Of a stretch of 64,000 nt of DNA, positions 22,901 to 64,000 are shown piece by piece. Every line of letters starts with the position of its first letter. Position 1 is the first letter of the stretch. The stretch covers positions 1,280,001-1,344,000 of the forward strand of contig CP000068.1 in the NCBI GenBank assembly GCA_000002445.1, written 5' to 3'. The DNA is from Trypanosoma brucei (lineage: Eukaryota). The notes beneath the pieces are model-generated. The model was not told the origin of the DNA. It made no database searches and was given only the letters and a program-made list of their open reading frames with translations. The translations under genes were made by a program, and so were the position numbers.

Positions 22901-23262
22901 TTTTTTTTTTAATTTATTTTCCTCCTCCCTCCCTCCCTTTTCTGTTTCCTCTCTCGACCCTATTCAAACATTTACCATTATAGACACTCCTGACACTTTG
23001 CAAACAATTTCTTTCCTGAATCCCTTCTTCCCTTCCGCATCGTCCCTTCTTTTCTCTTCTCTCCTTTTCTTTCCTTTTCTCTCCTTTTCTTTCCCTTGCC
23101 TACACAAGTTCGTTGTTTGTTCTTTTTCACTAAAACCGACATTTCCTTAACATTTTTTCCCCCTCCCCACACCCCATACCCCACAAGCATCATCACACTT
23201 CCATTTTTTTTTATTTCAATTCCTTTCATTTCATTTCATTTCATTTCCCTTACATCTACACG
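19914..23262. other. 3.3 kb gene-free low-complexity interval (homopurine/homopyrimidine blocks); presumably long 3'UTR of the phosphatase gene plus processing signals
   Basis: No ORF >100 aa of non-degenerate composition. Plus-strand purine-rich blocks (~20200-21190, ~22340-22660) alternate with pyrimidine-rich blocks (~21200-22330, ~22680-23250). Contains (TA)n at 22446-22462 and (AAT)n at 22553-22575. Confidence 0.5.
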
Positions 23263-25173
23263 TTAAATGCGCTTAAGACGCGGTATCATACCTGGAACGC
23301 TTTTCGACAGCGTGCGAGGTGATACCGGTCCTTTCGTTTCCTTCATCTCGTGCCGGTGGGGCTTTTTAATCGCCATGCGCATTTTACCATTGGCCACTAA
23401 TATACAACCTGCACCATTCTGGTGGCCGGCATAGTCAGACGTGGAAAATATCGTCACAACGCGAGCATTATCTGACAGCCGAACACCATCCGCCTTTTCT
23501 TGATGCGCACGAAATATGTATTGGTAGTTGTAGCGCTCACAAAACATATCAACTGCACGAGAACCGAAGGTTTTGATATCAGGTCCGCGTGGGTTTGGCC
23601 CGAAGCCATATTTATCAAGTTGATGGTTTGGCGGTGCGGGATCGGACCACAACAAGTCATTCACCATCATACGCTGTGCCACATTTGTGGGATCAGTACA
23701 TTGAACCACCGGAATACGAGGGAAAGAAGGATCAGAAAGAATCTCAAGTCGTTTGTCCTCACCCCCGGAATACTGCGGCAAGCCGCCGTGAACGCAGAAT
23801 ATCTTCTTATCAATATCAGCTATAACGGGGAGGAACTGAAATACCTCATTCACTGCAACCCACACATCAATACCACGATCCCTTCCAAACTTGTCGAGGC
23901 ATTGATATTTGAATGAGCTGTAACCATACACATCCATATCACCATTTACCTCAGGGGATTCATGGTTACCACGCAGTAGAGTAACCTTAGATGGGCTAAT
24001 AACTTTGAGTGCAAAGAGGTACATGACACACTCAACCGAGAAGGCACCACGATCTACATAGTCGCCAAGGAACAAAAGATGCGAAGTGGTATACTTGAGC
24101 ATAATATCATCAAAAGCCACCACTTTATCCAAGAAATAGGCCATATCAGCGAAGTTGCCATGGATGTCACCGAACACTGTTACGGGCGACTTGAGACGGA
24201 TGAATAAAGGTTCCTTCGCCACCACCTCGCGACATTGGCTACAAACGGAAATAACAAGTTTGCAGAACTCCGTGAGATTATCGTAGGAAAATGAAGTGTT
24301 TTGCGCATTGGATGAGCGCCGTATCATCTCGATAAGTCGGGCCGCATCCACTGGTGGTTGTGTTGGCGAATTTATGTAATTCCGTACATCCTGAAGCTGC
24401 AGCATCGTGCTATGACTCGCTACCGCCTCATCAAACGCGCGAGACTTCGGTCCGGTTATCGCGGAAATCCCTGCCCGCGGGGTGTCAGGTTCCGTCATTC
24501 CCTTTTGACCGACCGCATTCTGTAGCAAATCAACAATTGTAACAGTCATTGGAAAGGTTGAAAACTCATCATCACACAAAAGCACATTTTGTGAGAAGAC
24601 ATATTTATCAGGTAGGCCCGTGACAGCCTGAGCGGGTTGTGCTTCCTGTTGCCTCCGGTCGTCACGGCGTCTGCCGTGGAAAGCCGGCTCCGTTAAGATG
24701 ATGGTCTCCATCATGCGCAGCCGCTCCTCCATTTTATGCACTGTGTTAGAAATATTAGACAGCAACTCTGGTGGTACCTTCGATATAAAAGCGCTAAACT
24801 CTCCTGCAGTCAGTTTTGCGTTGCTGATGCAGTCGTAGTTTGTATTGCTACGTCCCGAAAGAATCTCATCTGTTGTTAGCAAATCAAGCTCTACAGACCA
24901 ATCTGTTTTAAGAGTTTTAATGCGTCCCACTTTATATAAAGCTCTGCCATCCGTTGAATCCTCCACGCGGCACCGCACAAAGAAACCAGTGACAAGTGGA
25001 AACAACCTCGAGCGGATTTTGTGATGCCATTCAGACAACTTTTCACGGTTTATGGTTACAGCCTGAACCATTTCTAACGTGACGAGGTTGTCAGCGCGGA
25101 ACGAAAGGCTTCCGGAGGGCGGCGAAAGGTCCGGCGGGGCCTGAGGAGAGGGAGGTACATTAGGTGGATCCAT
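23263..25173 (-). CDS. serine/threonine protein phosphatase, PPP family catalytic domain with ~330-aa N-terminal extension
   Basis: PPP signature motifs GDIHGNF, GDYVDRG and LLRGNHE in the C-terminal half, plus downstream conserved segments (CVHGGL, SDP, RAHQ). The N-terminal extension has no recognisable domain. Confidence 0.85.
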   Translation of the reverse strand: MDPPNVPPSPQAPPDLSPPSGSLSFRADNLVTLEMVQAVTINREKLSEWHHKIRSRLFPLVTGFFVRCRVEDSTDGRALYKVGRIKTLKTDWSVELDLLTTDEILSGRSNTNYDCISNAKLTAGEFSAFISKVPPELLSNISNTVHKMEERLRMMETIILTEPAFHGRRRDDRRQQEAQPAQAVTGLPDKYVFSQNVLLCDDEFSTFPMTVTIVDLLQNAVGQKGMTEPDTPRAGISAITGPKSRAFDEAVASHSTMLQLQDVRNYINSPTQPPVDAARLIEMIRRSSNAQNTSFSYDNLTEFCKLVISVCSQCREVVAKEPLFIRLKSPVTVFGDIHGNFADMAYFLDKVVAFDDIMLKYTTSHLLFLGDYVDRGAFSVECVMYLFALKVISPSKVTLLRGNHESPEVNGDMDVYGYSSFKYQCLDKFGRDRGIDVWVAVNEVFQFLPVIADIDKKIFCVHGGLPQYSGGEDKRLEILSDPSFPRIPVVQCTDPTNVAQRMMVNDLLWSDPAPPNHQLDKYGFGPNPRGPDIKTFGSRAVDMFCERYNYQYIFRAHQEKADGVRLSDNARVVTIFSTSDYAGHQNGAGCILVANGKMRMAIKKPHRHEMKETKGPVSPRTLSKSVPGMIPRLKRI

Positions 25174-47860: not shown

Positions 47861-50641
47861 CTAATTCGATCTTTGCCTCTTTGCACCACAATTTCCCTCG
47901 TCACAGAGGTTTGAAATCAGGTTTGGTTCCCTCACACTTACTCTGCACAACGCAACTTCCATCTGTTGTATTTTCGCCTTGTCAACGGCTGTGATTTGTG
48001 CACCGGACTTTCTTGACATATCCTCTAGCATCCCCTTAAGTTGTTCAAAGCTCTTGATCCAGTAATTCACTTCTTCGTTGGCTCGATGTATCGCCTTCAT
48101 TGCCCAATCCTTTTCTTTAGCTCTGAAACATTCCGTTTCTTCGCGTTTAGCCTTTACTGCTTCCAGAGCCTTCTTATACTCTCCTTTGCGGGAAATTTCG
48201 TAGTCAAGCTTACTTCGGAGCTTCTGGGTTCTCTGCTCCAACTCGTCAACGTTACGCTTTTCAGTATCTAGTAAGCGGGAAAGCTCTCTCACCTGATCGT
48301 CTTTCTTCTGAATATCGGCAGCGTGCTGCCGCGATAGATCACTAATCTTCTCCATGAGGTTTTCACTGTTCTTTTCAGCTTTCTCCTTTTCATTCTCAGC
48401 GACGTTAATTTTCCTCGTAAGACCTTCCCTCTGCTCTACAAGAAGTTTCTCACTTCCCTCAACACGTGATTCGATTTCCCTCAACTTGAGCTCAAGGTGA
48501 GAACACATGTCCTCGGCGTTTCTTCGCACCTTTTCCAGGTGACTTAGTCTGCGCAGCAGTTCGTCGTTCTTGTTCGTGTATAACACACGATATTCCTCTG
48601 CCACAGCAAGCGTTTTCTCAACTGTCAGTGCGCTATATTGGTCAACAATATCTACAAAAAAACGTGAGAAGTGTTCTAACCAATTCGCCATCCACTGTGA
48701 CAATCTCATTCGGTCTTCAGAGTACAAAGTAGCCTCACGCAAAAGGTTTTCTGTTTCGATGAGTTTGTCAGAAAGAACCTTTTGGTTAGCGGTGCGGTCT
48801 TCATTATTGATATTCTCCCTTTCAATTTCTTTCCCCAGGAGAAAAAGTTGTTCTTTATCTCGTCGTGCACCCTCTTGGAGGTCTAGAATTTCTGCCTCCT
48901 TCGTCCTTAGTTCCTCAACCAATTCCTCTTTTCCCCGTATCAACGTACTTCTTTCAGCTTCCAAACGCAGCCGCGCCTCTGATAGACGTAATATCTCCGT
49001 ATCTTTTTGATGAGTCAACTCCTCAACTTTCTTTTTTAGTAAGTTTGTCTCCTCGTAGAAATGTGTCACTGCAGTATCGATATTGACGACAAGAATGCCG
49101 TGAATATCAAGGTTTTCATCAGCAGACTCTTTAGACAGACTCCACCTGGCAGCCTGTTCTTCGAGCTCAAGCACCTTTACCTGAAGCATGAAGTTATTCA
49201 GCTGCATTTCTTCAGTGGCAGAACGTAGCTGGGTAGAAAATTCAGAACTCTGCATAACCTTGCGATAGAGGTCCTCATTTCTTGCATTAGCTTCACCTAA
49301 CTGACCTGTCAACTTGTCAATTACCCCTCGTCTGGCGTCAATTTCAGACGTAAGATCTTTCGCCTCACGGCGCAGAGAATCAATTTTTTCTTCGTAATCC
49401 ACCCGCATGAGTACCAAATTTTCGTCCTTCGTATCCTGCATACTCTTCACTCGCTGGAATTCGGTCTCCAAGAAACTTTTTGCACTAACGACGCTCTCCA
49501 AATCCATCCTTGTTCGTTCGAGCGCACTTCGAAGCTCTTGAAGATTACTTTCCAATATTGCGGCTCTTCGGCTGCTATCGGTACGTTCTTGTTCAAGACG
49601 GTTCACATCAGCCTTCAGTTGACTGACAGACAGTTCATACTTCCGAGACTCAGCGCACTTCTCTATCACCTGATCGTTTAGCGCCGAAATCTTCGACCTC
49701 AATTCTACAATAACTTCTTGGTGTTTGGAAGAATTTTCAGAAGCATGCTCAAAATCACGACGCATTGTTTCCAGCTCCATCATAAGCAGCTTGTTTCCTT
49801 TTTCGGATTCTCGTAGGTCACAGTTTGCCTTTTCTACACGACCTTTTTCTTCAATGTTGATCAGTTTTGCCGCCTCGATTTGCTGGTTCAGTGTGGAGAC
49901 GGTGTTTTGCAGCTTCTCAATCGTGCTCTTCTGCATTCCTAACTGTACTTCGAGAGACTTTATCTCGTTGTCTTTCACATGACAAACCTCTTCCCACTTG
50001 GATTTTGCTTCCTCCAACTTGAAAACAGTTTCGTCGCGCGTATGCACATCGTTCTGCAATGCCTCGATACGGGAATGTAACAAAGTTATCTTCTTTTCCC
50101 CCTCGTGCGATAATGACTCCAATTTTGTTGTGTGGTCCTTCTCCCTCTGTAACTGCTTCTGAACTTCCTTCAGTGTGACGTTCAACTCCTTGAATTCATC
50201 CGCTAACTTCGAATAAGCAGTCCTTGATTCTTCAAGTTGTCTCTGAATGGTTTCGTTCTCGGTGATCCATTGTTTCTCTGCGTCGCACCACTTGGCTATA
50301 GAAGCATGAGCGTCACGACGAATTTGCTCCTTCTCACATTCAGCCCTAGCCGCGCGCTTCTGCTCAGCAACCAATGCAGATTGTTTTTCGGATAAGTCCT
50401 TTTGCAGGGTGTGACACCTCTCCTCTAATTTTCCCCGCTTCTTGTCGTCGTCCGTATGCATTAACTTTTCTCTACGTAGCTCAGCTTTGTCTTGTTCGAG
50501 AGTAGCTATCTGTGCTTGTTGTAACTTAACTTTTTCCTCAAGCTCACGAGTGTAAGCTTTCTCACGCTGCAGCTGAAACTCCAAATGTTTTTGGGTCCCT
50601 TTTAGCCCCTGTCTGGAATCACCTTTCGCAGGAGACTCCAT
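47861..50641 (-). CDS. hypothetical large coiled-coil protein (926 aa)
   Basis: Uninterrupted ORF dominated by heptad-like E/K/L/Q-rich sequence without motor or enzymatic motifs. Candidate cytoskeletal/flagellar structural protein. Confidence 0.6.
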   Translation of the reverse strand: MESPAKGDSRQGLKGTQKHLEFQLQREKAYTRELEEKVKLQQAQIATLEQDKAELRREKLMHTDDDKKRGKLEERCHTLQKDLSEKQSALVAEQKRAARAECEKEQIRRDAHASIAKWCDAEKQWITENETIQRQLEESRTAYSKLADEFKELNVTLKEVQKQLQREKDHTTKLESLSHEGEKKITLLHSRIEALQNDVHTRDETVFKLEEAKSKWEEVCHVKDNEIKSLEVQLGMQKSTIEKLQNTVSTLNQQIEAAKLINIEEKGRVEKANCDLRESEKGNKLLMMELETMRRDFEHASENSSKHQEVIVELRSKISALNDQVIEKCAESRKYELSVSQLKADVNRLEQERTDSSRRAAILESNLQELRSALERTRMDLESVVSAKSFLETEFQRVKSMQDTKDENLVLMRVDYEEKIDSLRREAKDLTSEIDARRGVIDKLTGQLGEANARNEDLYRKVMQSSEFSTQLRSATEEMQLNNFMLQVKVLELEEQAARWSLSKESADENLDIHGILVVNIDTAVTHFYEETNLLKKKVEELTHQKDTEILRLSEARLRLEAERSTLIRGKEELVEELRTKEAEILDLQEGARRDKEQLFLLGKEIERENINNEDRTANQKVLSDKLIETENLLREATLYSEDRMRLSQWMANWLEHFSRFFVDIVDQYSALTVEKTLAVAEEYRVLYTNKNDELLRRLSHLEKVRRNAEDMCSHLELKLREIESRVEGSEKLLVEQREGLTRKINVAENEKEKAEKNSENLMEKISDLSRQHAADIQKKDDQVRELSRLLDTEKRNVDELEQRTQKLRSKLDYEISRKGEYKKALEAVKAKREETECFRAKEKDWAMKAIHRANEEVNYWIKSFEQLKGMLEDMSRKSGAQITAVDKAKIQQMEVALCRVSVREPNLISNLCDEGNCGAKRQRSN

Positions 50642-50879: not shown

Positions 50880-51644
50880 TCATTGTGGTTTTTTTTCTAT
50901 AGCACAACCTTTTCCCCTCGAATTCATGTAAAAATTTAAAAACAAAACCAGAAGTGAGGCATTGTACAATAATTGCAGCAGGTTCCACCCTAAAGTAAAC
51001 TGAGTGTCAAGTAACGTGACCAAAATAGCATGAAGAATACAAAGAGAAAACTGCAACATTTGAATCTTGGTTAGCAGAAATTTAAACGGATTCCTATACC
51101 CCAAAGATGTCCAGAGGTAGTGTGAATACATCAAAAAATGAACGGAAGAATTTATCCAAGTCCCAAAAAACGCCGTCCCGTTTGCAAGTCCGTTTCTCAA
51201 CAAAATTCCCCAAATAAGACCAATCGTACAGTGATGATATACGTGCAAGAACGACAGTTGATCCTCTTTTTTCTTGCAAAGTATGAAAACGGTATCCAGC
51301 ATATCAATGTACTTGCTGCAGTAGTGAACGAACATCCAAAACTCTATATCCGGGCAAAATTTACCACTCAGGTTAAAGACGCCATTTTTCAAAGGCGGTG
51401 ACAGGTTAATCGCCATTGCGGCCGATAGGCATATCTGGAGCACGTTGTAAACGACCAACACCCTACTCATGTTTAAGGCGCGCCTGCCCCGCATAATACT
51501 TCTCATGACAAACACGACAAACAAATAAAGTAAATGTCCCAATACTAACGCGTGCCATGAAACCAAAGGATTAAGATATGGGAAAAAACAGAGAGAACCC
51601 ACTCCCTGACATGCCGAAGCATCTCTGCAGTCCATCATGATCAC
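50880..51644 (-). CDS. fatty acid elongase (ELO family); first gene of the minus-strand polycistronic unit
   Basis: ELO signature LHVYHH (HxxHH), KxxxxxDT box (SKYIDMLDTVF), and multiple predicted transmembrane segments. From memory, an ELO paralogue (ELO4) lies in this chromosome-5 neighbourhood in T. brucei; this is not verifiable here. Confidence 0.8.
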   Translation of the reverse strand: MIMMDCRDASACQGVGSLCFFPYLNPLVSWHALVLGHLLYLFVVFVMRSIMRGRRALNMSRVLVVYNVLQICLSAAMAINLSPPLKNGVFNLSGKFCPDIEFWMFVHYCSKYIDMLDTVFILCKKKEDQLSFLHVYHHCTIGLIWGILLRNGLANGTAFFGTWINSSVHFLMYSHYLWTSLGYRNPFKFLLTKIQMLQFSLCILHAILVTLLDTQFTLGWNLLQLLYNASLLVLFLNFYMNSRGKGCAIEKKPQ

Positions 51645-52680
51645 TCTTGCTTTTAATTACTATATGGAAAGATGAAGAAACACAATCAAGAAGTTTTATT
51701 CGAACGTTGCCACACGAAAAAAAAACAGGGTAATACATAAAGTAACTTGAACGATACAGCTACAGGCAATCATTAAGAAACTGAGGGAAGTCATTGTCAC
51801 AGCAATACTGTGGGACTTCCGTTCACTCGGAGCTCCAACCTAATGACGGAGACTCCAAGCTGAATCCGACTTCGATAAAATCATTACGACGGCTGCCCCT
51901 GCTACACAAAACAACTGCAAAATAAACTTTCACCATGCGTTGGATAGACACACCTGCATCCATCGATGTCCCCGACGGAAAGAGTCTAAATATCAGCATC
52001 ATGTATATTACCGCGAAAAAAGAAAAATGAGATCACCCCGGCCACATGAACAGAAGTAACCACAGATAACATATGCATCCCTCCGCCTCCTTGAAAACAG
52101 ACAAATCGTGAAACATACAGAAATTACACCAGGAAGCAGATGAACAGAACCACCAATAACGGTCCAGCTATTGTCAGAGTTGCACCACTTTGGTATGTAG
52201 GCATCATGGACCCTAACCCACTGAACGAATGCTACAATGAGTTTGTTATCACCTGCCGTCGACGACCCACTGAGGTTGCAGAATGTTTTAAGTGTCCACC
52301 TAAAGAAATGTTGAAGATTCAAACAAACACAGTGCTCTGATTCATATATTTGAACACGAAAAAAGATAGCGATATAATTAGAACGCCAACAATAGTCCAC
52401 TGTTACCACAATGAATTAGAAGACAACATAGTTTACACACGAGACAAATGCTTACAAACAAGCATATTTAATTAAAGGGCGTTGAGAAATGGGGAGCAGC
52501 AACAAACAATCACATACGAGCAAGCAACGACACTGTTTTGCTGTTTTTGTTTGGAAAAAATACCAACGTGAAGGTATTTCAAAAATGACAACGAAATGGG
52601 CACCAAACCACACGTATCCGCTACCGAAAGTCAAAAATAAGGTAAGGCGCACAATTTACAAGAAAATAAAATAAATAATT

Positions 52681-52716
52681 CACACACACATATATATATA
52701 TATATGTGTGTGTGTA
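52681..52716. repeat. perfectly palindromic compound microsatellite (CA)5(TA)7(TG)5 in the strand-switch region
   Basis: cacacacacatatatatatatatatgtgtgtgtgt. It is self-complementary over its full length. Confidence 0.9.
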
Positions 52717-54521
52717 TATTGAACTGTGACTCAATTAAAGGGAAATATATACTTTGAAAGACGAAAACACCGACTACTTGTAGCCATTAGCAATAACATA
52801 AATAACAGCGCCCATGACGCTACGCCCTACATCCAAAAGAGCAAGCAAAAAAAACAGTCACAAAAGACTAGTCACATCCAAGAAAGCCGAGTGGTTGTAA
52901 GAAACAACCGAAAATACACAAGCAGGCCTTTGAAGCTCCTCTTTTCAAAAAAAAAAAGGATTAAAGACGACAAGAATCACCAGGGCACACACAAATTGTT
53001 GTGGGGACGCAACCCGCAACCATCCCCCACCGCCACCTTGTGGTAGGAGTTCGCGCCAAAGCCCATCTCACAATATTTGGGAAGTCCAGCAGCTCTCAGG
53101 CGGTCGCTCCTCGACGCAAGACCCACTAACTCCGGTGGAGGCACCGCAGGAAGCCAGAGCGACCACACACACAAACACACAACCCACCACCTTTGGGACG
53201 CATGCCTCACAAGCCGAGGCGGGAGCTACACTAGCATCTCTAGCCTTTGACGCGCCAAACTTCTCCGTCGCACACCCGAGAGCATGTCACCTACACACGA
53301 TAAATAGCGAGGGACCCGCCAAGCAAACCCGCAAGGCCACCACCCAATGAAGAGTTTCAGCGGGCACACGCAGAAGGTCAAAATACCAAGCATGTTGGGA
53401 GGACCCCCGGCCGCGACGGCGTATGCCAACCCCCGCCACTGCGTCCAGACCAATACGCCTCGCGGAATAACGGAACCCAAGCAACTGGGACAAGAGCATA
53501 TATGATGGGGTGCGACTCGCTAGTGCGGGGTCGATTGCGTGGAATGAAAGGACTTCAAGGCGGGACCGAACCTAGACACCACTTCCCCAGATGCCGAACC
53601 TCGAGGATGCACAAGCAATCGTAAACAGGACGGCGACCACTGCTGAAGAACACTTGACTCCAACACTTGGTTATGGACGGATGGAATAACAACAAGTGTA
53701 TGCCCAATACTCCCAATCTTTCGGACAGTGCAGAACGGTGATGAATCACCCAATGGAAATAGAAAAAAAATGGAGAGAAGACTCCGCAAGTCAGCGAAGG
53801 CTATAAGCAGCATGGACGATAGTATAATCCCGACCCCCGGCCACTCCACGAGAACCATTCCTGGGGGAAAAAGCGACGCCGGTCGACGCGAGGCATCAAG
53901 TTCTCAGAATTTAGGATGAGGATAAAGAGGCATTGGGGAAGAAGGAGAAGCAATATCATCGTCATATCGGGGAAAAAACACAATATACGGAACCACCTCA
54001 ACAATCCAAAAGAGACTCATCCGAACATCTAGTGACGGAAGAAGGTTGCTGGGAATAATCGGCCTTAATGCTTGTCATGGGTTTATTGTCAATTCTGTGC
54101 TGCTCGCAAACGGCAAGATGCTGATAGAAGGAGCAGGGGTAGCGACCAACGGCAAATATGCGCCACCAACGACAGACAAAACTCTCAGATGCCCCGGTAA
54201 AGAACGTGCCAGAGGTTGAGAGGACGCGAAACTCAAACCGTTTCACACGCCGGAGCCGATTGTTGCCACAGGAAGATCGAAATTTCCTCCTTCTGCTGAA
54301 GAAAATGGCGTTTGTGGTGTACCAACTAAAGAACATGGAGGTAAACGGGCTAAACCACATGTAAAAACTACTCAACGGGAATCGAAAATACTGGGGAGCG
54401 TTGGGAAAGTGGAAGTGTGAAGCTGTTGAACTGGCGTTAAGGGAAAGCAAGGGGACTGCTGTCATGGCATCGTCAAAAACTAACAGCGCCCACCTGCGCC
54501 AATTACAAAGCAATGCAGTAG

Positions 54522-55378
54522 TTGGTCCAAAGGAGATTTGTGGATTCTGTTGACCGTTGGTTGCGTATACAAAAGGAAAAGGTTTCTGCGCCAACGTTCG
54601 GCAGCAGAATCCATAACTCAGTTGATTGGAGACGCAACTTCGTACGAACCGAATGTACTCAGCACGGTCAAGCTAACTCTACACTCGTGAGTTTGGACCC
54701 ATGGAGAGTGGTGACGCAATTCGAGTGCCTGAGAAGTTATCTCCTAACCTCCAAATTATGTGGTGGGTAAGAAACTTTCCACCAAACAAGATAGCGAGAG
54801 TCAGTACAAACCAACGAGTTTTGGGGAAATCTCACATGACCGTGCCGTGTGGCAAAAAGAACGGTGTCGGGCTCCATTTTATTCAAAATTATGACGAAGG
54901 GGCTGAGGGATCAACCGGACGGAATACTGGACATACAACGTTGTTTCTTTGTGGACTATATGATACTCGTACGCAGGAACCTGAACGGGTGAAACCTGGA
55001 GGTGCGCTACAACAACCGGTAGGCTACACCACCTCGTGGTTTCAAAGCCGTTTAAAGAGAGATCTGTGCAGAAAACTAAATACATTCCGCCTCTACTGGT
55101 GTTACGAAACCTACTAGGTACTATAGTGGTCAGTGAAAAAGATAGACAAGGCGGAGGCGCCGCATCTGCTGTGTCTCACCCTGCAATCTATCGGAAGAAC
55201 ACCAAAACGAACACAAAGGGTATCTGAGGAGTTAGGTGGGGGTGATGAAACCGTGCGCGGTATCCTCACCCTAGTGGAGCCAAGCGAAAAATTATTAGGG
55301 ACACTCAATTTGGGATTGATGCCAGCACTGCGAAAGCGCTTGAGAAAGACATGGTCAGTCTCCACGACCTCCAAATGA
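54522..55378 (+). pseudogene. degenerate ORF remnant inside the strand-switch region (one frameshift near 54701-54770 and two closely spaced in-frame stops at 55115-55126)
   Basis: Track ORFs 54522..54770 (frame 0), 54701..55117 and 55133..55378 (same frame; separated only by TAG at 55115-55117 and TAG at 55124-55126) together form ~860 bp of interrupted coding-like sequence. The surrounding block is GC-rich and lacks the polypyrimidine tracts typical of local intergenic DNA. No protein family recognised. Confidence 0.25.
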
Positions 55379-58300
55379 TGAAAACACTGAAGGGAGGTCG
55401 CAGGGACGAGTGATGTCAAATGCGTCATGAAGGATGGTGAGGTTCTCCAACTTACGTAGGTTCTTTACCAAACATTACTGTAACGAGGATGAGAGAACCC
55501 TCAAATGTTCGTACAAATGTTTGGGGTGAAGAAACGAGGAAAAAGAGAATACACAAAGACGAATCCATACCGGAAACGGGAGAAAATGAGTATAGAACAT
55601 ATGTTGATAGATCCGCGCACCTCATTCATTGTTTCTTTTTTTGATAAACATGCTTGGGGAAACGGTTCTCGGGCCTAGAATGTGGAAAATTGCACCCCGC
55701 TGATGAGCACTGCCATGCTCACCGAACCCACATTATTTCTAACATTTGATGCCTTATTTTTTTTTTTTTGGCTTGACAGATCTCGAAACATCTCTATAAT
55801 TTATCTTCTTATTGAAAGCATCCAACATTAGCCCCCTAAACAGACTGAGGGGTCCTTGCCCCATAGAAACAAGTCCTGAATTTTAAAGGGTGAGTTCCTT
55901 GGATACTGTCCCCCATCAGTTTTGGGAATGCCTCACTTGCCTTTACCCGAATGCACCGCGTAAAAATTAGTGGACGTTGTGCATGATGATGACCGTTCTC
56001 TTTTTACACGCGATTGGGTTTTCAATGTACCCAATCACTATGTATGAAGCGTGCCACAACCATGTTTTGGTATCCGCGAATTTTTAACGCACAGCACTCT
56101 TCCGCTGCCAAGTAAGTCTCCTAAAATAGGCAGAAGACTACCATATCCTGGTGAAGCTTCTTCTCTAAGGCGATCCGCTTCGGCTCGGAGAGACCCCCAG
56201 TGTTCCATTGAGCTCCATGAATGACAGGACGAGGATTCCGTTCTACACCTCCCCTAAGTAGTAGTAGAAGCCTATGTATCCCAATCGAAGCGCGCTCGCA
56301 CGTGCGGAGGAGCAGTCTAATATATTTCTTCCCCCCTAAGTGCCGATACTGCTGCTTGCTCCTTCTCTGATCGCCGTCAGCTTCTTGCCCACCAAAATTA
56401 TCTCTGACAGGGTAGAATGCGGGCTATTGGCTTCCTTCTGGACGGAGCACTAGACGCTGGCACCATGATGAGATGGGCGGTGTAGGCAGGGACGTTACTG
56501 TATCAGTTTCCGCGGCTACCCTTCACCCGTGTGCTTTGCGCGGGCGGTCGCTACACCGGCCCTTTTTATGTTATGCATTGACGGCCGGCCTCGGTAGCGC
56601 TCGTTCACTTGCTGCAGTGGAGCCCCGATGTGTTCCGCCGGCGCTGCCTCCAGCTGTGCTGTTACGGTGAAGTGGAGGGGCGCGTGGTTGGGTCGGCTTG
56701 GAGTTTTCGGGGGGTGCGCGCAGCACTTTCTTGTTCTCCGGCTGTGAGTGACTGGTTGGAGTCGGGGTTTTGCGGTGTAGGTATTTGCATAGTTCATCGG
56801 AGGCCCCGCGTGGCTATGGTGACGCGAACCTCTGGGCCCCCTGTCGGTTAGAGCGGTACCGTCTGGGAGGAGCCGCCCGCATTGTCTCGGTGGGGGCAAG
56901 GGCCCCTTCTTAACCACGTCTAAGGAGACGCAGTGGTTACTCGGCCGTCGCAGGTCGTGTGCCGCTATTGCATTGCTTGTTACTTTGTCCTTTCATGCGG
57001 TGAGAGGTGGATAATGCTACGCCTTACGGTGGGGTGTCGCTGCTTCGGAAGTCTATTCTGTTGATTGTTGTCGACGACTCAGCGAGTGGGCGTTTATTGT
57101 CGAAACATAAAGTGACTCTGCTGTCAGTGCTTCTGCTCGTGTATTTGCCGTTTCAGGTATGGTAACAGATGGAACTGACTGTCATATTCCCGCGTCAGGG
57201 GAACAAGCTGTAACTTCGCGTTCGGGCGCTGTATTCCATGTTTTAGTTGTCGTAACATGTTTGTATATGCTTGTATGTGTTACGTGTTCATCATTCAGGT
57301 TTCGCCTCGAACCATCGGTTGCTGTCTAGGGGTCGCATCTCCGCTTTACTCGACAACTCTCTATTGTTCGGTAGCAAAGAGTGGACTGGGATGGTCTTCG
57401 TGATCGGGCTGTTAATTGCTTAGGCACGCCTCGAAGTTACAGCAGACGAGATAGTGAGATGAGGTGTGTGTGCTGTGTCTTACTGATGTGTGCAAGGGAT
57501 TTGTGCTAAACAAAAAAATATATGTACTAATTCAGGTAATATTACCTACTCGAGCATTGCGATTTGGGTGAGATTGCTGCGGATGAATTTGTTGTCGCAC
57601 TTTACTTGGAGGAGTTTCCGGAAACTGTCTGTTCCAAAGTTGTTTTCTCTGCAGTAAAAGGTGGAGGATCCTTGTACCTACAGGTCCGATGCGGCTGTTC
57701 AGAACGTTTGTAGCCCAATGGGCTTCGTCCAGCAACACAGTGTAGAAACGAATAGCATGTTGTCCCTCCATCTGGTCAACACGAAAGCCATACCCCGCGT
57801 TTCTGCCTCGGTGCTGAGATAGTGCGGTCATGCGTTACGCAATATGAGATATGCCCGTTTTTAAAATTATGAATGTCCTCGATAAGATAATCACTCGATT
57901 GTATCGCTCGTGTGGCCGCTGGCGATGGATGCCAAGATTCCCTACTGGACCTTCAAATAGTAATATAAGAAGCTCACTGGACCGTATTGGGGGCAACGAA
58001 GATATCTTGTATCAGGGAGGATATGGGTTTGTTAACACGCGCGATTTCACAATCCTTCTACCAAACCGAAGCGTCGTGAAGCTGATTTCCCCAAACAACA
58101 GTGGATGATGTTCAACTTAAAGCTCTCTCTGTCTCATTACCGCTATCTGTGTTCAATGAGCGGTGTCATCTGTGCTGTGGCTATGTTACCTGTGTAATCA
58201 TACCACCTGATGGTACGGAGTTCGTACGCACATCCTCATGCTGGATGTACCTGTTGGTATTGGAACGTTTTTGTGACAAATGCAGGGGGGGGCTTGCTAA

Positions 58301-61032
58301 ACCTCTATATGATCTCCCTCTCCATGTTACGGGATATTTTTAGATTAATGGTACATGAAAAGTGAGGTAAGAGCCTTTGGAGTTCACAACAAATCGTTTC
58401 TTTCAAAGTTCCAATACTACTTAATTGCATTCCGTAAAAATAAAAATTCGTTTTTCGTATAAACTATTAGGTTTTAGTGTGTGGGTGTGTATGGGGAGAG
58501 CGAAGCATTTTGTGTAGCGACTTTAAGAAAAACTTCAGGTAAATGGGCATACAGTATGTTGGAAAGAGAATATCGGCCTTCGAAAAGGCTCTTCAATAGT
58601 GTTAGTTCTTTCACTCACCTTTTCCTTTGTTGGTAGAACTGGTGATTCCAAGTTGAATAGTTGTAGACGGATGTTTGAAGTGTATTTACATATTCCCTTT
58701 GGAGTTTCTGTGGGTGTGTGAGGTTTCTGGCATTCTGAAACCACACATTAGGTGGTTAATTACGTTAAAGCAGCATCCGGCCGATGCGATTGTCCACCAC
58801 AGAAATTCTAAGGCGTAATGTGGTGGTGGAGTGTTGGCTGCTAGACGGCGTTTCGGCCTTTGTTTGATGTTTGCAACCTCGTTGGTGTGGGAAAGGGCGT
58901 GTGAGTGACACATATCCCTTGAATTATATATTTTTTGCCGTCCGCATTATCTCCGCTACGCGTTGCATGCACACCCGTGTGGTGTTTATTTTTTTTTATG
59001 TTGTGTTATATAATAATGGTGGTTTCTGACGAGTTTGTTGTTTGTAGTGTGACCCTTAATTTTTCTTAGATCACGATTTTTTGACAACATTCCGAAGAAC
59101 AATTACTCCCTTACCGCACATACTTCATTACTGATTGAATCCACTCCAAGCTATCAAAACGATACGCAAATATGTGTGTGGAATTTGTTTTGTGTGTTGT
59201 GGCTTTCTGCGGTGTCAGGTTCACAGGTTTCTAAAACTTCGTTCGTGGGAGCGTTGCGTCGTCAGAAAGTTCGCATTGATCCAAGTGAAGTGTGGGGTTT
59301 TGTTGATGATATGTAGGTTGTATTTTTGGCTCTAACAAATACTACCTTTCATTTTTGTTAGGTATTTGTTCGGCCAATTAAACGACGATGCTATTGCAGT
59401 CTGTACCTCACACCCACTTCTTTACCCCTAGTTGCATTTAAGAGCCCAGTGCTTGTAGACCAGACAACAGGTCCCATTTTGACGAGAAACAAGTCGTTAG
59501 TGATTTTTTTTTGTGTGGGACTACCCGTGAATTTTGGAAGAGAGGATAGTTAATGCCTCACTGTTAGAGTTGGTTCTGTTGCATTCTGGAGCAGCCCTGT
59601 TTTGTCAATTCTTCCATTTCCTTCCTGCAGTTATCGTTTTTGTCTGTTCAATTATCCGACGCAGCTGTTCGTTCACGGTCCTTCAATATATAAATATATA
59701 TATATGAAGTAACATACTTTTGAGGATGTACTTTGCTGCTTCGAATCATCTGCATGTTAGGCATGCTTTTTCACATGTTCTCTATTTCGTTCGTGGAGGA
59801 ACGAAGCTACCTTTTCCTCTTTAGCAGCACAGTTCAAAGCCAAGTGAGAAAATACGCATTAAAATACAAAACCCATTAGAAAGCAGCTGAAAACGAAAAG
59901 TACACCTTTGTGCCTCTGCTGATGGTCACATTATTCTTCACATTTACTGATAGTTCAATTTTATTATTGTGGTGTGATTGCAGGTGAAGCACCCCTTCAA
60001 GCCATTTTATGAGTGATTACACGGAAAAAAACATTATTAACACCAAATTGAGGGAAAAACCTGTGTGTGCCGTACCCTTCAGTGGCTGTACCATCCACTC
60101 TTGATTTGGTAGTGTAGTGGGTATAAAAAGAGTATTTATGACTAATTTCCACTCAACGTATTTCTTGGGTGGTTAAATTTATTTATTTTTCTTTGGACTG
60201 TATTTGTGGCTTCACGTCAATCTTTATTTTTAGCAGAGGACGCAACGAGAACTTGGTCTGGTTCGGAAGAAGATGTTTTTCTCCTACTTGTGGCTGTGCT
60301 TTTTGAGATATTGAAGTTTTTTCTTTTCAAAGATTGAGATGAGGAAATTTATTGCAAACAATGTTTAACATTCTGAAAGGTTATTTTGTTCATCTTTCCG
60401 GAAAGGGGAAGAGTGATTTTGGCCCTTAATCGACCGTGCTTGTGCTCCCAATGGGCGGATGATAGCAAAAATAAGAGACTTATGTTAAGAAATCATGAGA
60501 GGTGGTTCGAAGAAGAAGTTGAAAGTGACTAACTCATTTAAACGATGGAGCTGCTACACATCCTCTCATATCATGTTTTGTAGATGTCAGAGGGTGCATG
60601 TTACTTGATAGAACGTGAATACACTGAAACCTTTAAGCTTCTGTTTGAGGCATCGGAGAACGGCGTGGTTATAGGATCCTCTGTAATTCGCGGGGTACCA
60701 GTAACAAAAACGTTCGGTTCCATTGCCTCAAGCTTGTTACATACAATACTCGAATACCATTTCAAGGAAGTAAATGCCTCACTTGTCAAAATATACTTCG
60801 TGTTGAACCTTTTCCCTTTCCCCTTGGTGGATGCTTGTTCTTCAAAAGGGATATCGCGGGACGTATGCTTGGTTTTATGTTAGTTTGTGCGGTGTACGGA
60901 AATATCTAATATGGAATATGTCGCCCTCTTTGGCATTGTTCCCATTGTTATTTTGTTTACGCGGTTGCGCATTTTGTCTGATTCCTTGTCAACCTTAGTA
61001 CTGTATTTTCCTTTAGTTCCTGCAGCAACATT

Positions 61033-61052
61033 TGTGTGTGTGTGTGTGTGTG
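61033..61052. repeat. (TG)10 microsatellite ~200 bp upstream of the GRESAG4 start codon
   Basis: tttgtgtgtgtgtgtgtgtgtgtggc read directly. Confidence 0.85.
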
Positions 61053-61255
61053 GCATTGATTCATTATGGTACACTGTGTGTTGGTTGAGCATTCTTCGTT
61101 TTAGTTGGTGTCTGCGTTTTGTTTGGGATTGTTTACTTTGTTCTTTGTAGGACGTTTAGTTTACCTGTTTCACTAGCAGTACCGGCCAAAGTTTCCAAAT
61201 TATGATTTCCATTCATCAGTCGATTCTCTTCGGTCGCGATGTTTCACGGGTCCGC

Positions 61256-64000
61256 ATGGAGAATAGTCCCGTGCCGTGTATCAACCAGTTTCGCTGCCGC
61301 CTTACCATGTCATCGTTGTCGCTACTTTTGGTGTTTCTTGTGGTGGTTATGCCGCCGGTGGAAGCTTTGGATAATATAACGGTAAAGGTTTACTCACTTC
61401 TGTATCACCCTTTTGTTGGGAGGAGACTAATCGATTCTATGAATGCCGGTTTCAACGCGTCAATGGCAGCCCGTCAATGGACCGTTGCCCCAGGCATCAA
61501 TGTTGAAGTTATCCACCCTGCATCGTATAGAATTCCGGGTCCGAGGTTCTTGCAGAGGGCAATAAATGATAACAAGGATGAATTCTTTGTTGTGGTGGGA
61601 CCGATGGGTGACGGTCAGTTGGCTGCCTCTCGTTCATTCTTGCAGAAGGAAAATTTGGTTGCATTTGCTCCATCCACTGGGGCAAGCTCTGTGCGCGGTT
61701 GGAGTCCCAACATCTACTTCCTGCGTGTGTCACCCACTGTCGAGCTTATTGCATTGATGCGTTTTGCTGTAACTCACCTGCGTTTACTACGGATCGGCTT
61801 CATGTACCTGCAGGGTCTCACCTTTGGGGATAGTGAATATGAGGTGGCCATAAAACTAATGTCTCATTTGGGACGCGAGTTATGTGGTGTTTTCACAGTG
61901 GCAAGCTCGCATGGCAAAGGTGCAGCTGACTCCGATTTTGATGCCGTGTGGGACAAGTTCGTGGTGACCCGTCCACAGGGTGTGATCATGTTTGCTCCAC
62001 CAGCAAAAGATGTGGTAAGATTTGTAGTAAAGATGCTGAATGACAGTCGTACCCAAGACGCCTACTTTCTTGCTTCTTCGGTACTCGAATTGACAATTGC
62101 CTCTTGGAGCGGCAATATTGAGGCAGCCAATACAGCACTTGATCTCGGGCAGATTGTGCTCTCGCGCACGAATCCGCTGGCGACGGACACACAATACCAA
62201 GCAATCAGGCGTTTTCAGGACGATGCGAGATCATACCTGAGTGCTAATCCGGGCGTAACTCTCTTCAGCGGCGCAGACGACTTCGAGCATCATTATGTGG
62301 ATGGGAAGCTTATGGTGTATGGGTGGATCGTTGGTGAGGTGCTGTCACAGGCCCTGAGGAGTCGTGCCTGGATTAAGGACAGGGAGACCTTCAAGAAGTC
62401 TCTGTATAGTCAACGTCGGTACGTCGTCGATGAGCTTGTGTTTGGTGACTTTGGTGGTGAGTGTGAGGGTACAGCAGGTAAGCGCGGTGCTGTGTGTAAC
62501 TGTAATCAGGGAGGAAACGTAGTGTACATCAACGTTGCTAGGAGGGATAATGTCTTGGAGGTGATACATGATGGACAGGTAGTTGTCGATTCATCACTCT
62601 GTTACCACGACGAGGTTCGGTTGCATTCCCCTGTGAATGGTTTATTGGTATTCATGCAGGATGATCCGGTTGCGCAAAATGCGGCTGAGGAAATATATGA
62701 TGGCGCCATTCCTCTCACTGGTGATGGCCGTCTGGGGCGAACTGATCGTTTTTTCTTACATATGCTGACATCAGAAACGGCTGAAGCATCCTCAGAGTTA
62801 GAGTCAGAATTGGGCACCAGGGCAGTGACGGCTGTGTTTGGAGTTGCCGATGATGCTATGCTATCCCTACAAACTACTGCTTTCATTGACCCCATCTCTC
62901 TCCTCCCGGGGTTACCTCATAGAGGGAGGAAAGTTATTTACCTATCTCCGACACTGGAGCAGCAGCTATTCGCGCTGGTAAAATATTTTGTCGGGTCAGG
63001 TTCTACGGTAGTGCACGCTGTCGTCTGCCGTGGTGATGTGGTTTCGATTGAAAGATTGCTTTATCTGATGTTGATGACTTTTGGCGGGCACATGGGAACA
63101 GTGGTAGGGCCTGATAGCAGTACAGATCTGGAAGGTTCGATGCCAGAAACCGGTGATGTGCTTGTCATAGGCCTGTCCAAGGACGACGTTGCCGTGGTAG
63201 CGTCTCACCTGGATCGTAACCCGGATGTTCGTGTCGCTGTCCTGTTCTTTGACGTAGCCCTACTATACATTGAGTTTGTCAAAGCTTTCAAGAGCAGTTC
63301 AAGCGGTGGTCGGCTTCTTTTTGCAACGAGTCTGCCTCACTGGGCAGAGGCTAACTCGACTTCGGCTACTGTACAGAAGTTTCACGCGGCAGTGCCTGAT
63401 TCGCCACGGTGGACACCTTTGTCACTGCTTGGTTTCGCGACCGGAAGATTCATTCAAACGCTGCTCTTTCATATGGACAAAGTGACACCGGATTCTATAA
63501 TCAATGCAATATATACTCTCTCGGTCGTAAACAGCGACGACATGCGGTATGGTCCGTTCGTGGAGGAGCGATGCCCTTCAACCAAAGATGCGCCGGAGGG
63601 CGGCGACCACTTCTGTGGTAAGAATTATGGTGCGAGGCGACTTTCTGTGTGGTCGATGGACCGTGCGCTGAACGCTTCGGTGGCACCGCTGACATCGGGC
63701 GCAACGCCGTCTTTGGTGTACATAGACCCGTATTCGAAGGTGTTGTCAGGCGGCCGACTTGCCGGTGTCATCGTTGGAGTTCTTTTCATTTTACTGTTGC
63801 TTGTTGCTCTTTTGCTAGTGCTTCTTTGTCTGCGCCGCAGCGCACGCGACAATGACAGCGCGCCCAAGGAGCCAGCGGACCCTGTGACGCTAATTTTTAC
63901 AGATGTAGAAAGCAGTACTGCACAATGGGCAGCACATCCCGAGCTGATGCCCGATGCTGTGGCCGCGCATCACCGTTTGATTCGCTCGCTAATCACCCAC
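61256..64000 (+). CDS. GRESAG4: receptor-type adenylate cyclase GRESAG4 (N-terminal extracellular domain, TM helix and start of catalytic domain; CDS continues past right edge). An alternative start at 61307 gives an N-terminal signal peptide MSSLSLLLVFLVVVMPPVEA.
   Basis: My own plus-strand translation is open from 61202/61256 to position 64000 without a stop, so it is absent from the ORF track. It has a hydrophobic signal peptide, a large extracellular domain, a single TM segment (GRLAGVIVGVLFILLLLVALLLVLLCL, ~63760-63830) and then TLIFTDVESSTAQWAAHPELMPDAVAAHHRLIRSLITH. This last stretch is the conserved start of the trypanosome class III cyclase catalytic domain. Confidence 0.9.
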   Translation, partial: MENSPVPCINQFRCRLTMSSLSLLLVFLVVVMPPVEALDNITVKVYSLLYHPFVGRRLIDSMNAGFNASMAARQWTVAPGINVEVIHPASYRIPGPRFLQRAINDNKDEFFVVVGPMGDGQLAASRSFLQKENLVAFAPSTGASSVRGWSPNIYFLRVSPTVELIALMRFAVTHLRLLRIGFMYLQGLTFGDSEYEVAIKLMSHLGRELCGVFTVASSHGKGAADSDFDAVWDKFVVTRPQGVIMFAPPAKDVVRFVVKMLNDSRTQDAYFLASSVLELTIASWSGNIEAANTALDLGQIVLSRTNPLATDTQYQAIRRFQDDARSYLSANPGVTLFSGADDFEHHYVDGKLMVYGWIVGEVLSQALRSRAWIKDRETFKKSLYSQRRYVVDELVFGDFGGECEGTAGKRGAVCNCNQGGNVVYINVARRDNVLEVIHDGQVVVDSSLCYHDEVRLHSPVNGLLVFMQDDPVAQNAAEEIYDGAIPLTGDGRLGRTDRFFLHMLTSETAEASSELESELGTRAVTAVFGVADDAMLSLQTTAFIDPISLLPGLPHRGRKVIYLSPTLEQQLFALVKYFVGSGSTVVHAVVCRGDVVSIERLLYLMLMTFGGHMGTVVGPDSSTDLEGSMPETGDVLVIGLSKDDVAVVASHLDRNPDVRVAVLFFDVALLYIEFVKAFKSSSSGGRLLFATSLPHWAEANSTSATVQKFHAAVPDSPRWTPLSLLGFATGRFIQTLLFHMDKVTPDSIINAIYTLSVVNSDDMRYGPFVEERCPSTKDAPEGGDHFCGKNYGARRLSVWSMDRALNASVAPLTSGATPSLVYIDPYSKVLSGGRLAGVIVGVLFILLLLVALLLVLLCLRRSARDNDSAPKEPADPVTLIFTDVESSTAQWAAHPELMPDAVAAHHRLIRSLITH

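Follow-up and report, generated by a model that had tools for sequence, protein, structure and literature searches.

The locus and its flanking genes

The window that we have analysed is a 64,000-nucleotide stretch of T. brucei TREU927 chromosome 5 (1,280,001-1,344,000), and its positions, which are used throughout, differ from those of the chromosome by exactly 1,280,000, an offset that is anchored by the poly(A)-site coordinates of Tb927.5.4530 and Tb927.5.4480. The features of interest are the following:

50880-51638, minus strand: coding sequence (open reading frame) of the fatty-acid elongase ELO4 (Tb927.5.4530), left flank
51639-61201, no strand assigned: divergent strand-switch region from ELO4 to GRESAG4, measured between the annotated coding sequences
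52336-51749, minus strand: transcript Tb5.NT.87, 587 nt, 1.15 RNAs per cell in procyclic cells (Kolev et al. 2010, Table S7)
52678-52717, no strand assigned: palindromic compound microsatellite (CA)n(TA)n(TG)n, with inverted repeats
53001-53560, minus strand: GC-rich island 1, GC content 0.59
53162-53191, minus strand: longest GT-only run of the interval, GGTGGTGGGTTGTGTGTTTGTGTGTGTGGT, holding 11 overlapping 10-mers of Wedel et al. 2017
53561-56250, no strand assigned: central spacer, only slightly skewed in G+T (plus-strand fraction 0.465-0.495), plus strand purine-rich
56251-56960, plus strand: GC-rich island 2, GC content 0.59, 500-bp maximum 0.618
56321-56415, no strand assigned: hypervariable patch within island 2, 24 substitutions between TREU927 and T. 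b. gambiense, mostly transversions
57640-59639, plus strand: transcript Tb5.NT.88, 1999 nt, 0.27 RNAs per cell (Kolev et al. 2010, Table S7)
59799-61029, plus strand: transcript Tb5.NT.89, 1230 nt, 0.43 RNAs per cell (Kolev et al. 2010, Tables S7 and S13)
61031-61053, plus strand: (TG)n run opening a T-rich tract, directly upstream of the cyclase start codon
61202-64000, plus strand, continuing past the window end: receptor-type adenylate cyclase GRESAG4 (Tb927.5.4540), right flank

ELO4, whose homologues include the Pfam ELO family (PF01151) and the trypanosome elongases, is the first gene of the minus-strand transcription unit, and its stop codon was placed at 50880 from the poly(A) site at chromosome position 1,330,766 and a 3'UTR of 114 nt. 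The protein of 926 amino acids encoded at 47861-50641 is XP_845122.1 of TREU927 (GenBank AAZ11563), and from the gene order and the identifier used in kinetochore papers we take it to be Tb927.5.4520 (KKIP1). The TREU927 cyclase copies are numbered AAZ11565 and AAZ11566, so that the single GenBank number lying between AAZ11563 and AAZ11565 is presumably that of ELO4. GRESAG4 is the first gene of the plus-strand unit; its annotated protein has 1243 residues, of which residues 1-18 map to 61202-61255, and the annotated start at 61202, rather than 61256, sets the gap between the coding sequences at 9563 bp. The T. b. gambiense counterpart measures 9603 bp. Just ahead of the cyclase, 61030-61255 differs from gambiense by only 0.9%, and the (TG)n run is probably a component of the splice-acceptor signal of the cyclase mRNA.

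All 23 of the open reading frames to the left of the interval lie on the minus strand and the cyclase to its right lies on the plus strand, bearing out the view of the first-pass annotation that transcription diverges from here, with which Kolev et al. 2010 concur. The same annotation had called the interval unusually large. It is indeed long against the spacing within gene arrays of the window, 0.2-3.7 kb, but its 9.56 kb is normal among T. brucei divergent strand-switch regions, six others of which, drawn from chromosomes 1 and 2 only, measure 4.4, 6.8, 8.1, 8.5, 9.4 and 15.3 kb.

Strand composition of the two arms

Computed in 200-bp blocks, the plus-strand G+T fraction is 0.408 in 51645-54500, 0.492 in 54501-56500 and 0.577 in 56501-61201, with a highly significant difference between left and right (Mann-Whitney p = 8.7e-7) and a minimum of the cumulative G+T skew at 56397. 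The reversal of skew that had been proposed, from 0.41 on the left to 0.58 on the right with p about 1e-6, is therefore real, and a GT-rich right arm does exist, although it begins at about 56250 and not at 55800. The sense-strand G+T of the two arms, 0.593 and 0.577, compares with 0.564 +/- 0.073 for intergenic sequence of the minus-strand array (p = 0.13 and 0.49). The skew of the arms is thus indistinguishable from the intergenic background of the neighbouring gene array and is nothing particular to the interval. A G+T-rich sense strand is a property of whole transcription units (McDonagh 2000 and Siegel 2009, as cited by Wedel et al.), and the mirror-image skew, as an expression of this general trypanosomatid sense-strand bias, must flip at any divergent junction. 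Over 57640-61029 the base composition of the right arm (A.24-.27, C.18-.19, G.21-.23, T.33-.34) agrees with that of transcribed intergenic sequence of the ordinary kind (A.25, C.19, G.22, T.34).

Two strand-skewed GC-rich islands

The first-pass annotation had divided the interval into three compositional zones with a single GC-rich island. GC-rich sequence is present, but as two islands, which take the top two places for GC content among 500-bp stretches of the window. Each is depleted of A on its own sense strand, in a mirror-image arrangement: island 1 reads G.33, T.27, C.26 and A.14 on the minus strand and contains the lowest plus-strand T content of the window (0.126), while island 2 reads G.32, T.26, C.27 and A.15 on the plus strand and contains the lowest A content (0.116). 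Their distances from the first acceptor sites are also alike, island 1 lying 665-1225 bp upstream of the first minus-strand site at 52336 and island 2 lying 680-1390 bp upstream of the first plus-strand site at 57640. On the strength of composition and of these distances, from which initiation at the islands is inferred, each island would form the inner (5') end of a start region, island 1 for the minus strand and island 2 for the plus strand, with the central spacer between them presumably separating the two. Neither island folds better than shuffled sequence (z = +1.57 for island 1 and +0.52 for island 2), and conservation between the subspecies TREU927 and gambiense is no higher within them than in their surroundings.

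Wedel et al. 2017 (EMBO J) reported 10-mers that show enrichment on start regions' coding strand. On the minus-strand side such 10-mers cluster at 52495-53337, upstream of the first minus-strand acceptor site, and 52001-54000 with 25 matches has the highest count in the window. They are few on the plus-strand side, 3 to 7 per 2 kb, with higher counts on both strands in the internal spacer at 20001-24000. The idea that GT-rich elements direct RNA polymerase II from this interval finds some support in the minus-side cluster but does not extend to the whole 5.5-kb right arm as a promoter, about 3.6 kb of which (57640-61029) lies downstream of mapped splice-acceptor sites. Judging from the sequence, only the inner parts of the arms, and chiefly the GT run at 53162-53191, are plausible as directional promoter elements of the GT-rich kind described by Wedel et al.

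A mapped divergent start region for RNA polymerase II, probably dispersed

The interval is already known, having been mapped as a divergent RNA polymerase II start in 2010. In their Table S14 Kolev et al. 2010 give the units Tb927.5.4530 to 4010 (minus) and Tb927.5.4540 to 4610 (plus), both classed as 'Divergent' Pol II units, and these units rest on RNA-seq enriched for 5'-triphosphate ends. In the published layout H2A.Z-marked start regions are about 10 kb wide, fragments from their 5' ends show the highest promoter activity, and divergent start regions are separated by a non-transcribed gap; the interval appears to fit this layout. We consider it very likely that this is a divergent strand-switch region of the ordinary kind, one already mapped, with back-to-back dispersed start regions. 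Under this explanation the polymerase would initiate across wide zones, each with its inner end close to one of the GC-rich islands that are poor in A on the sense strand (53.0-53.6 kb leftward and 56.25-56.96 kb rightward), and the nascent RNA would be trans-spliced at the first usable combination of pyrimidine tract and AG, at 52336 leftward and 57640 rightward. The RNA that lies upstream of each acceptor site would then be polyadenylated in a coupled step, and as the outcome rare processed RNAs without coding signs (Tb5.NT.87, 88 and 89) would precede the first real genes. Between the start regions, the 2.7-kb central spacer may be a weakly transcribed or untranscribed gap.

The best-surviving alternative is that the central spacer is chiefly an element of chromosome maintenance, either a site bound by ORC1/CDC6 or an early origin of replication, and that the layout serves replication equally. 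In the data of Tiengwe et al. 2012, ORC1/CDC6 sits in the middle of divergent regions, flanked by the twin peaks of H4K10ac, with binding at 62 of 88 such regions, and 19 of their 42 early origins fall at divergent regions. Their text, however, names no chromosome 5 origins, and no sequence feature in the interval marks an ORC1/CDC6 site or an origin. We regard a leading role in replication as possible but somewhat doubtful, and it would supplement the promoter reading, not replace it. Returning to dispersed initiation, we advance with comparable reserve the suggestion that the paired islands are discrete core initiation modules for both gene arrays, with the spacer between them a candidate landing site for ORC1/CDC6.

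Processed transcripts and the search for hidden genes

The description of the interval as gene-free holds for protein-coding genes and fails for transcripts, in that three trans-spliced, polyadenylated RNAs of low abundance have been recorded inside it. The maps of Kolev et al. 2010 cover a single life-cycle stage, procyclic cells, and further acceptor sites nearer the centre may therefore exist. Tb5.NT.87, which we placed by subtracting 1,280,000 from its chromosome coordinates (1,332,336 to 1,331,749), begins immediately 3' of an AG that is itself preceded by a pyrimidine tract. An AG directly precedes the 5' end in all three cases, for which the chance probability is about (1/16)^3. Tb5.NT.88 has the composition of in-array intergenic sequence, and the main poly(A) site of Tb5.NT.89 is at 61014 (Kolev et al. 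2010).

Splicing and polyadenylation at defined sites could be taken to mean that the three RNAs are functional genes, either long non-coding RNAs or messages for small proteins, and that the interval is not purely a promoter. An open reading frame of 99 codons in Tb5.NT.89 (60584-60883), unbroken in TREU927, gambiense and T. equiperdum and annotated in gambiense, points the same way. Against this, the transcripts amount to only 0.27-1.15 RNAs per cell versus 6.1 for the cyclase, and they are missing from Kolev's tables of transcripts that have homologues or matching peptides. Their divergence from gambiense, 2.1-2.8%, is similar to that of the remaining interval, and comparable transcripts occur in the arms of other divergent regions. 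Relative to gambiense the 99-codon frame carries 2 synonymous and 6 non-synonymous changes, an 85-codon frame carries 0 and 5, and an 80-codon frame is shifted. Among 1.84 billion representative proteins the 99-residue product has no homologue outside T. brucei, its single match being a 94%-identical protein of 99 residues that is presumably the gambiense frame itself. That these transcripts are genes in their own right is consequently very unlikely; 'gene-free' strand-switch regions of T. brucei usually have rare processed transcripts in their arms.

Comparison of open reading frames, Pfam and gambiense sequence establishes no conserved protein-coding gene between ELO4 and GRESAG4. There is no open reading frame of at least 200 amino acids between the flanking genes, six-frame translation of 52900-57300 gives no Pfam match, and frames of at least 70 amino acids in the interval give only sub-threshold ones. 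The frames are either broken in gambiense or carry mostly non-synonymous changes; that of 198 codons in the central spacer (53998-54594, minus strand), for example, has 5 stops and 4 indel columns there. Overall the interval diverges from gambiense by 2.66% with 48 indel columns, versus 0.74% for coding and 1.28% for in-array intergenic sequence, and the microsatellite at 52678-52717 differs in length between the subspecies (12-16 indel columns in 52500-52999).

No tRNAs were found in the interval and no Rfam match at gathering score, a permissive Rfam search giving only weak matches, low-complexity artefacts at the same microsatellite. With no family match, and with islands that fold like shuffled sequence, a structured non-coding RNA gene (tRNA, snRNA or snoRNA) was rejected. 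So was a T. brucei centromere, which would comprise arrays of an AT-rich repeat of about 147 bp with flanking retroelements, as only short microsatellites are present. A retroelement or pseudogene relic likewise found no footing, there being no protein-domain or paralogue similarity in any frame searched. The notion that the interval owes its length to genes now in decay or to a degenerate retroelement (for instance an ingi/DIRE relic or an ancient copy of the adenylate cyclase), with the zones as remains of the insertion, draws on the purine-rich strand and moderate GC of the central 2 kb, superficially coding-like, and on an orthologous T. cruzi junction of only about 1.45 kb, which implies either a gain of about 8 kb in the T. 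brucei lineage or a loss of that much in T. cruzi; yet Pfam domains are absent from the six frames of 52900-57300 and from the longer open reading frames, tblastn with 155 cyclase and elongase proteins and all window proteins is empty inside the interval, no segment is flanked by direct or inverted repeats and other T. brucei divergent regions are equally long, making such an origin most improbable.

Comparison with known systems

As a discovery the interval carries little weight, being a published start region since 2010 of typical size and skew, and its value is one of calibration: a G+T reversal needs to be set against the intergenic background before anyone takes it for a promoter signal. 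The paired, strand-skewed GC islands are the sole lead worth a quick genome-wide test. Should they be initiation modules and prove common to the majority of T. brucei divergent regions, base composition would serve to predict the points of focused initiation in the broad H2A.Z domains.

Like the T. brucei divergent strand-switch regions described previously (Siegel 2009; Kolev 2010; Wedel 2017), the interval has head-to-head arrays around a gap without protein-coding genes, is listed as a divergent Pol II start and falls, in size, inside the span of the regions sampled. The likeness is completed by processed transcripts of low abundance in the arms (several of the six regions compared also carry 'NT' transcripts there), a sense-strand G+T bias and a putative central gap, and in a comparison by sequence and published transcripts no feature tested departs from the class. 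The elements of Wedel 2017 are matched on the minus side by the coding-strand cluster of 10-mers and the 30-nt GT-only run. Unlike those elements, the interval lacks the top published 10-mer, ten G (its longest G run is 8 nt, at 58285), has few matches upstream of the first plus-strand acceptor site, and has a GT-rich right arm most of which is transcribed and of ordinary composition.

The T. cruzi junction between ELO and adenylate cyclase genes (two loci, L012 and L013) sets the identical two gene families head to head, and the junction must therefore predate the split of the two species. It shares with the T. brucei interval a sharp switch of G+T skew, a (CA)n(TA)n microsatellite and a GC-rich island (GC 0.60) that is G-rich on the cyclase-sense strand. 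It differs in length and in having one island versus two, and no nucleotide similarity was found between the T. cruzi junction and the T. brucei interval.

Kolev et al. likened T. brucei start sites to mammalian promoters of the CpG-island type, and GC-rich islands that would mark the inner end of each broad start zone do recall dispersed bidirectional promoters of that class. Unlike mammalian CpG islands, those of the interval have a CpG observed/expected ratio (0.87-0.94) much the same as that of the rest of the window (0.95), and in place of the one island that mammalian promoters share there are two, 3.2 kb apart, each skewed on one strand.

Location and Published Transcripts of the Strand-Switch Region

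Two gene arrays diverge at the interval between ELO4 and GRESAG4, which the literature lists as a Pol II start region and which gives rise to rare processed RNAs from both of its arms, the left of minus and the right of plus sense. The supplements of Kolev et al. 2010 (PMC2936537) list poly(A) sites at 1,330,766 for Tb927.5.4530 (3'UTR of 114 nt) and 1,323,277 for Tb927.5.4480 (317 nt), from which stop codons are obtained at window positions 50880 and 43594, so that the window corresponds to Tb927_05_v4:1,280,001-1,344,000. The first 18 residues of the 1243-aa cyclase, as annotated, are encoded at 61202-61255, and the coding-to-coding gap is therefore 51639-61201, or 9563 bp; the first-pass annotation had rightly taken the gap between the flanking genes as the interval but set its right end 54 nt too far.

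Genes and mapped transcripts (transcripts from Kolev et al. 2010, Table S7, PMC2936537)
43594-45333, minus strand: par4, paraflagellar rod component
50880-51638, minus strand: ELO-family elongase ELO4, Tb927.5.4530, left flank
52336 to 51749, minus strand: Tb5.NT.87, 587 nt, 1.15 RNAs per cell
57640-59639, plus strand: Tb5.NT.88, 1999 nt, 0.27 RNAs per cell
59799-61029, plus strand: Tb5.NT.89, 1230 nt, 0.43 RNAs per cell
from 61202, plus strand: receptor adenylate cyclase GRESAG4, Tb927.5.4540, right flank

By sequencing RNA enriched for 5'-triphosphate ends, Kolev et al. 2010 (PMC2936537) located the Pol II start sites and found enrichment at every divergent transcription unit; their Table S14 includes, as 'Divergent', the units Tb927.5.4530 to 4010 (minus) and Tb927.5.4540 to 4610 (plus), and their Table S7 places three novel procyclic transcripts inside the interval, at abundances to be compared with 6.1 RNAs per cell for the cyclase mRNA. 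An AG dinucleotide immediately precedes the 5' end of all three, consistent with acceptor sites for the spliced leader; it is also independent confirmation of the coordinate offset. In the right arm, transcribed and processed sequence therefore amounts to ∼3.6 kb, and in the left arm to 0.6 kb. The innermost mapped acceptor sites, 52336 and 57640, lie 5.3 kb apart.

Several details of the flanks are recorded here. The 926-aa coiled-coil protein encoded at 47861-50641 (minus) matches XP_845122.1 of T. brucei brucei TREU927 exactly and, judging from gene order and the identifier used in kinetochore papers, would be Tb927.5.4520 (KKIP1); its orthologue in one assembly of T. b. equiperdum (GCA_003543875.1) has 9 in-frame stops owing to an indel of one base that most likely arose in assembly. 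The protein collection has no exact match for ELO4 read as 252 aa or as 251 aa (the T. b. gambiense annotation is 252 aa), and the TREU927 record may use a different start codon or differ by one residue. TREU927 carries two near-identical cyclase copies at 61202-64000 and beyond (AAZ11565 and AAZ11566, Tb927.5.4540 and.4550). One copy followed by an amidohydrolase gene is seen in the assemblies of T. b. gambiense and T. equiperdum, whose loci were found via par4 and the cyclase; the difference is due either to a tandem duplication specific to the strain or to collapsed copies in the other two assemblies.

Coding and RNA-Gene Content

The interval had been described as gene-free, which is correct insofar as it contains no ORF of at least 200 aa and no domain or RNA-gene match, but not insofar as the three rare processed transcripts map inside it. 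Pfam searches of six frames of 52900-57300, with stops replaced by X, gave no matches, and those of ten longer ORFs of the interval only sub-threshold chance matches, while tblastn with 155 cyclase and elongase proteins and every protein of the window found nothing inside the interval. A tRNA or RNA-family gene can be dismissed, with no tRNAs and no Rfam match at gathering score; a permissive Rfam search matched solely the (CA)n(TA)n(TG)n palindrome at 52678-52717. The only repeats in the interval are short microsatellites.

Comparison with the gambiense counterpart (9603 bp) yields 2.66% substitutions and 48 indel columns, as against 0.74% in coding and 1.28% in intergenic sequence of the gene array. 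In gambiense the longest ORF (198 aa, 53998-54594, minus) is interrupted by 5 in-frame stops and has 4 indel columns, and its substitutions fall mainly at first codon positions. A 99-aa ORF within NT.89 is intact, with 2 synonymous and 6 non-synonymous changes; its single match among 1.84 billion protein representatives is a 99-aa protein, 94% identical, presumably the gambiense ORF. NT.87, NT.88 and NT.89 are absent from the tables of novel transcripts with homologues or matching peptides (Kolev et al. 2010, PMC2936537).

Strand Skew and Zone Structure

The mirror-image reversal of G+T skew proposed from the sequence is borne out in 200-bp blocks. The plus-strand G+T fraction is 0.408 ± 0.041 over 51645-54500, 0.492 ± 0.021 over 54501-56500 and 0.577 ± 0.051 over 56501-61201, falling below 0.5 in 13 of 14 left blocks and exceeding it in 20 of 23 right blocks (left versus right, Mann-Whitney p = 8.7e-7), and (G+T)-(A+C), accumulated along the whole window, is lowest at 56397, near the geometric centre of the interval. 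Six compositional zones are resolved rather than the three first described, the AT/CA-rich left, a GC-rich island and the GT-rich right being among them.

Compositional zones of the interval
51645-53000: zone 1, left arm, AT- and CA-rich, GC 0.39
53001-53560: zone 2, GC island 1, GC 0.59
53561-55700: zone 3, centre, little G+T skew, purine-rich on plus strand, GC 0.48
55701-56250: zone 4, short spacer
56251-56960: zone 5, GC island 2, GC 0.59
56961-61201: zone 6, right arm, GT-rich, GC 0.42

The centre is purine-rich because the GC skew flips at ∼53.5 kb and the AT skew only at ∼55.6 kb; over 53500-55600 the plus-strand A+G fraction is 0.57-0.59 alongside little G+T skew.

The G+T bias is not special to the interval but is shared with intergenic sequence of the array: sense-strand G+T is 0.593 and 0.577 in the two arms versus 0.564 ± 0.073 in 76 intergenic 200-bp blocks of the minus-strand array (p = 0.13 and 0.49), the coding sequence of that array having 0.524. 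NT.88 and NT.89 (A.24-.27, C.18-.19, G.21-.23, T.33-.34) match the array intergenic composition (A.25, C.19, G.22, T.34).

Candidate GT-Rich Promoter Elements

GT-rich 10-mers have been tied to the G-to-C and T-to-A skew reported earlier for L. major and T. brucei (Wedel et al. 2017), and we scanned the window with 157 of the 10-mers in Dataset EV1 of that work. The highest count in the window on the minus strand, 25, occurs in 52001-54000, with a concentration at 52495-53337 that includes a GT-only run of 30 nt in island 1 (53162-53191, minus). This cluster lies upstream of the first minus-strand acceptor site, the expected place for a promoter element. Plus-strand matches per 2 kb from 54001 to 62000 number 3, 3, 7 and 4, fewer than in an internal spacer at 20001-24000 (33 plus-strand and 32 minus-strand). 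The ten-G run that heads the published 10-mers is absent, the longest G run being 8 nt at 58285. Given this distribution, the earlier reading of the GT-rich sequence as promoter elements can reasonably be kept for the inner left arm; it is weak when applied to the right arm and mistaken for the outer parts, which are transcribed. The supplements of Wedel et al. 2017 hold no chromosome 5 start-region coordinates.

The internal spacer belongs to 3.7 kb of the minus-strand array that carry no coding sequence (19546-23262), where the 10-mers outnumber those of the strand-switch region on both strands. It contains a C-run quadruplex motif at 23159-23182 and the main poly(A) site of Tb927.5.4380, at the end of a 1.66-kb 3'UTR (window 21607; Kolev poly(A) table, PMC2936537), and Table S14 of the same work lists no internal start site there.

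Paired GC-Rich Islands

No other 500-bp stretch of the window is as GC-rich as the two islands (0.596 and 0.618, against a window mean of 0.466 with sd 0.056), and it is within them that plus-strand T (0.126) and A (0.116) reach their lowest values in the 64 kb. On its own sense strand each has nearly the composition of the other (islands 1/2: G.33/.32, T.27/.26, C.26/.27, A.14/.15), each precedes the first acceptor site of its direction by 0.7-1.4 kb, and both fall between the innermost acceptors. An inverted duplication of arms or islands is rejected, since blastn at word size 7, arm to arm and island to island, gave GT microsatellite matches only. The islands fold no better than shuffled sequence, and their CpG is neither in excess nor in deficit; the interval contains no three-tetrad canonical G-quadruplex motif, and two-tetrad motifs track G content. 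Within island 2, 56321-56415 differs from gambiense by 24 substitutions, mostly transversions, in 95 bp, T. equiperdum being the same as TREU927 over the aligned part (to about 56380); the rest of the island diverges by ∼2.4%, as does the rest of the interval.

We suggest that Pol II initiation is dispersed yet focused near the two islands, because Wedel et al. 2017 find that each start region has its strongest promoter activity, and the peak of its primary transcripts, at the 5' end. The spliced leader would then be captured at the first downstream pyrimidine tract and AG, and the RNA upstream of each acceptor would be polyadenylated in a coupled step, giving the rare NT RNAs before ELO4 and the cyclase are reached. 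The 2.7-kb centre would be the gap between divergent start regions. Of 88 divergent regions, 62 have ORC1/CDC6 bound at the centre (Tiengwe et al. 2012; no chromosome 5 origins are named in the text). The strand-skewed island pair is the sole lead from this site, a candidate feature known from this one T. brucei region; a GRESAG4 paralogue looked up as a second divergent region lies among tandem cyclase genes, where the strand does not switch.

Comparison with Other Divergent Regions

The interval had been called unusually large, and at 9.56 kb it does stand out locally, where spacers between coding sequences are 0.2-3.7 kb, but not against six other divergent regions, for which ATG-to-ATG distances were derived from the tables of Kolev et al. 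2010 (PMC2936537).

ATG-to-ATG distances of other T. brucei divergent regions
Tb927.1.890/1.990: 9.4 kb
Tb927.1.2880/1.2950: 4.4 kb
Tb927.1.3560/1.3670: 15.3 kb; 5.8 kb with Tb927.1.3640 counted
Tb927.2.1600/2.1680: 8.1 kb
Tb927.2.2590/2.2650: 8.5 kb
Tb927.2.5080/2.5120: about 6.8 kb

Several of these likewise have NT transcripts in their arms, and the inner acceptor-to-acceptor distance at Tb927.2.2590/2.2650 is 5.5 kb versus 5.3 kb here. Start regions are H2A.Z domains ∼10 kb wide, a single one of 9.2 kb having been cloned (Wedel et al. 2017). With these sizes and this domain width, the interval is of ordinary size for T. brucei. The first-pass annotation is partly confirmed in its observation and partly supported in its interpretation.

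Contigs end upstream of the ELO4 orthologue in T. melophagium (594 bp), T. conorhini (424 bp) and T. vivax (121 bp); the junction with the cyclase seems to break assemblies, perhaps on account of neighbouring cyclase family copies. The L. tarentolae ELO gene is not located at a strand switch. The cyclase at the T. cruzi junction is a 616-aa fragment, with an RHS fragment nearby in one of the two loci, L013.

In T. cruzi the ELO and cyclase genes likewise stand head to head (8550-10000 in both homologous loci, L012 and L013), but ∼1.45 kb apart, and among the T. brucei and T. cruzi comparisons made it is only beside this counterpart that the interval is large. The T. cruzi junction has a sharp skew switch, as in T. 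brucei, one GC-rich island (9501-9750) and a (CA)n(TA)n microsatellite resembling that at 52678-52717 of the T. brucei window. The interval is a known, ordinary member of the divergent strand-switch class.
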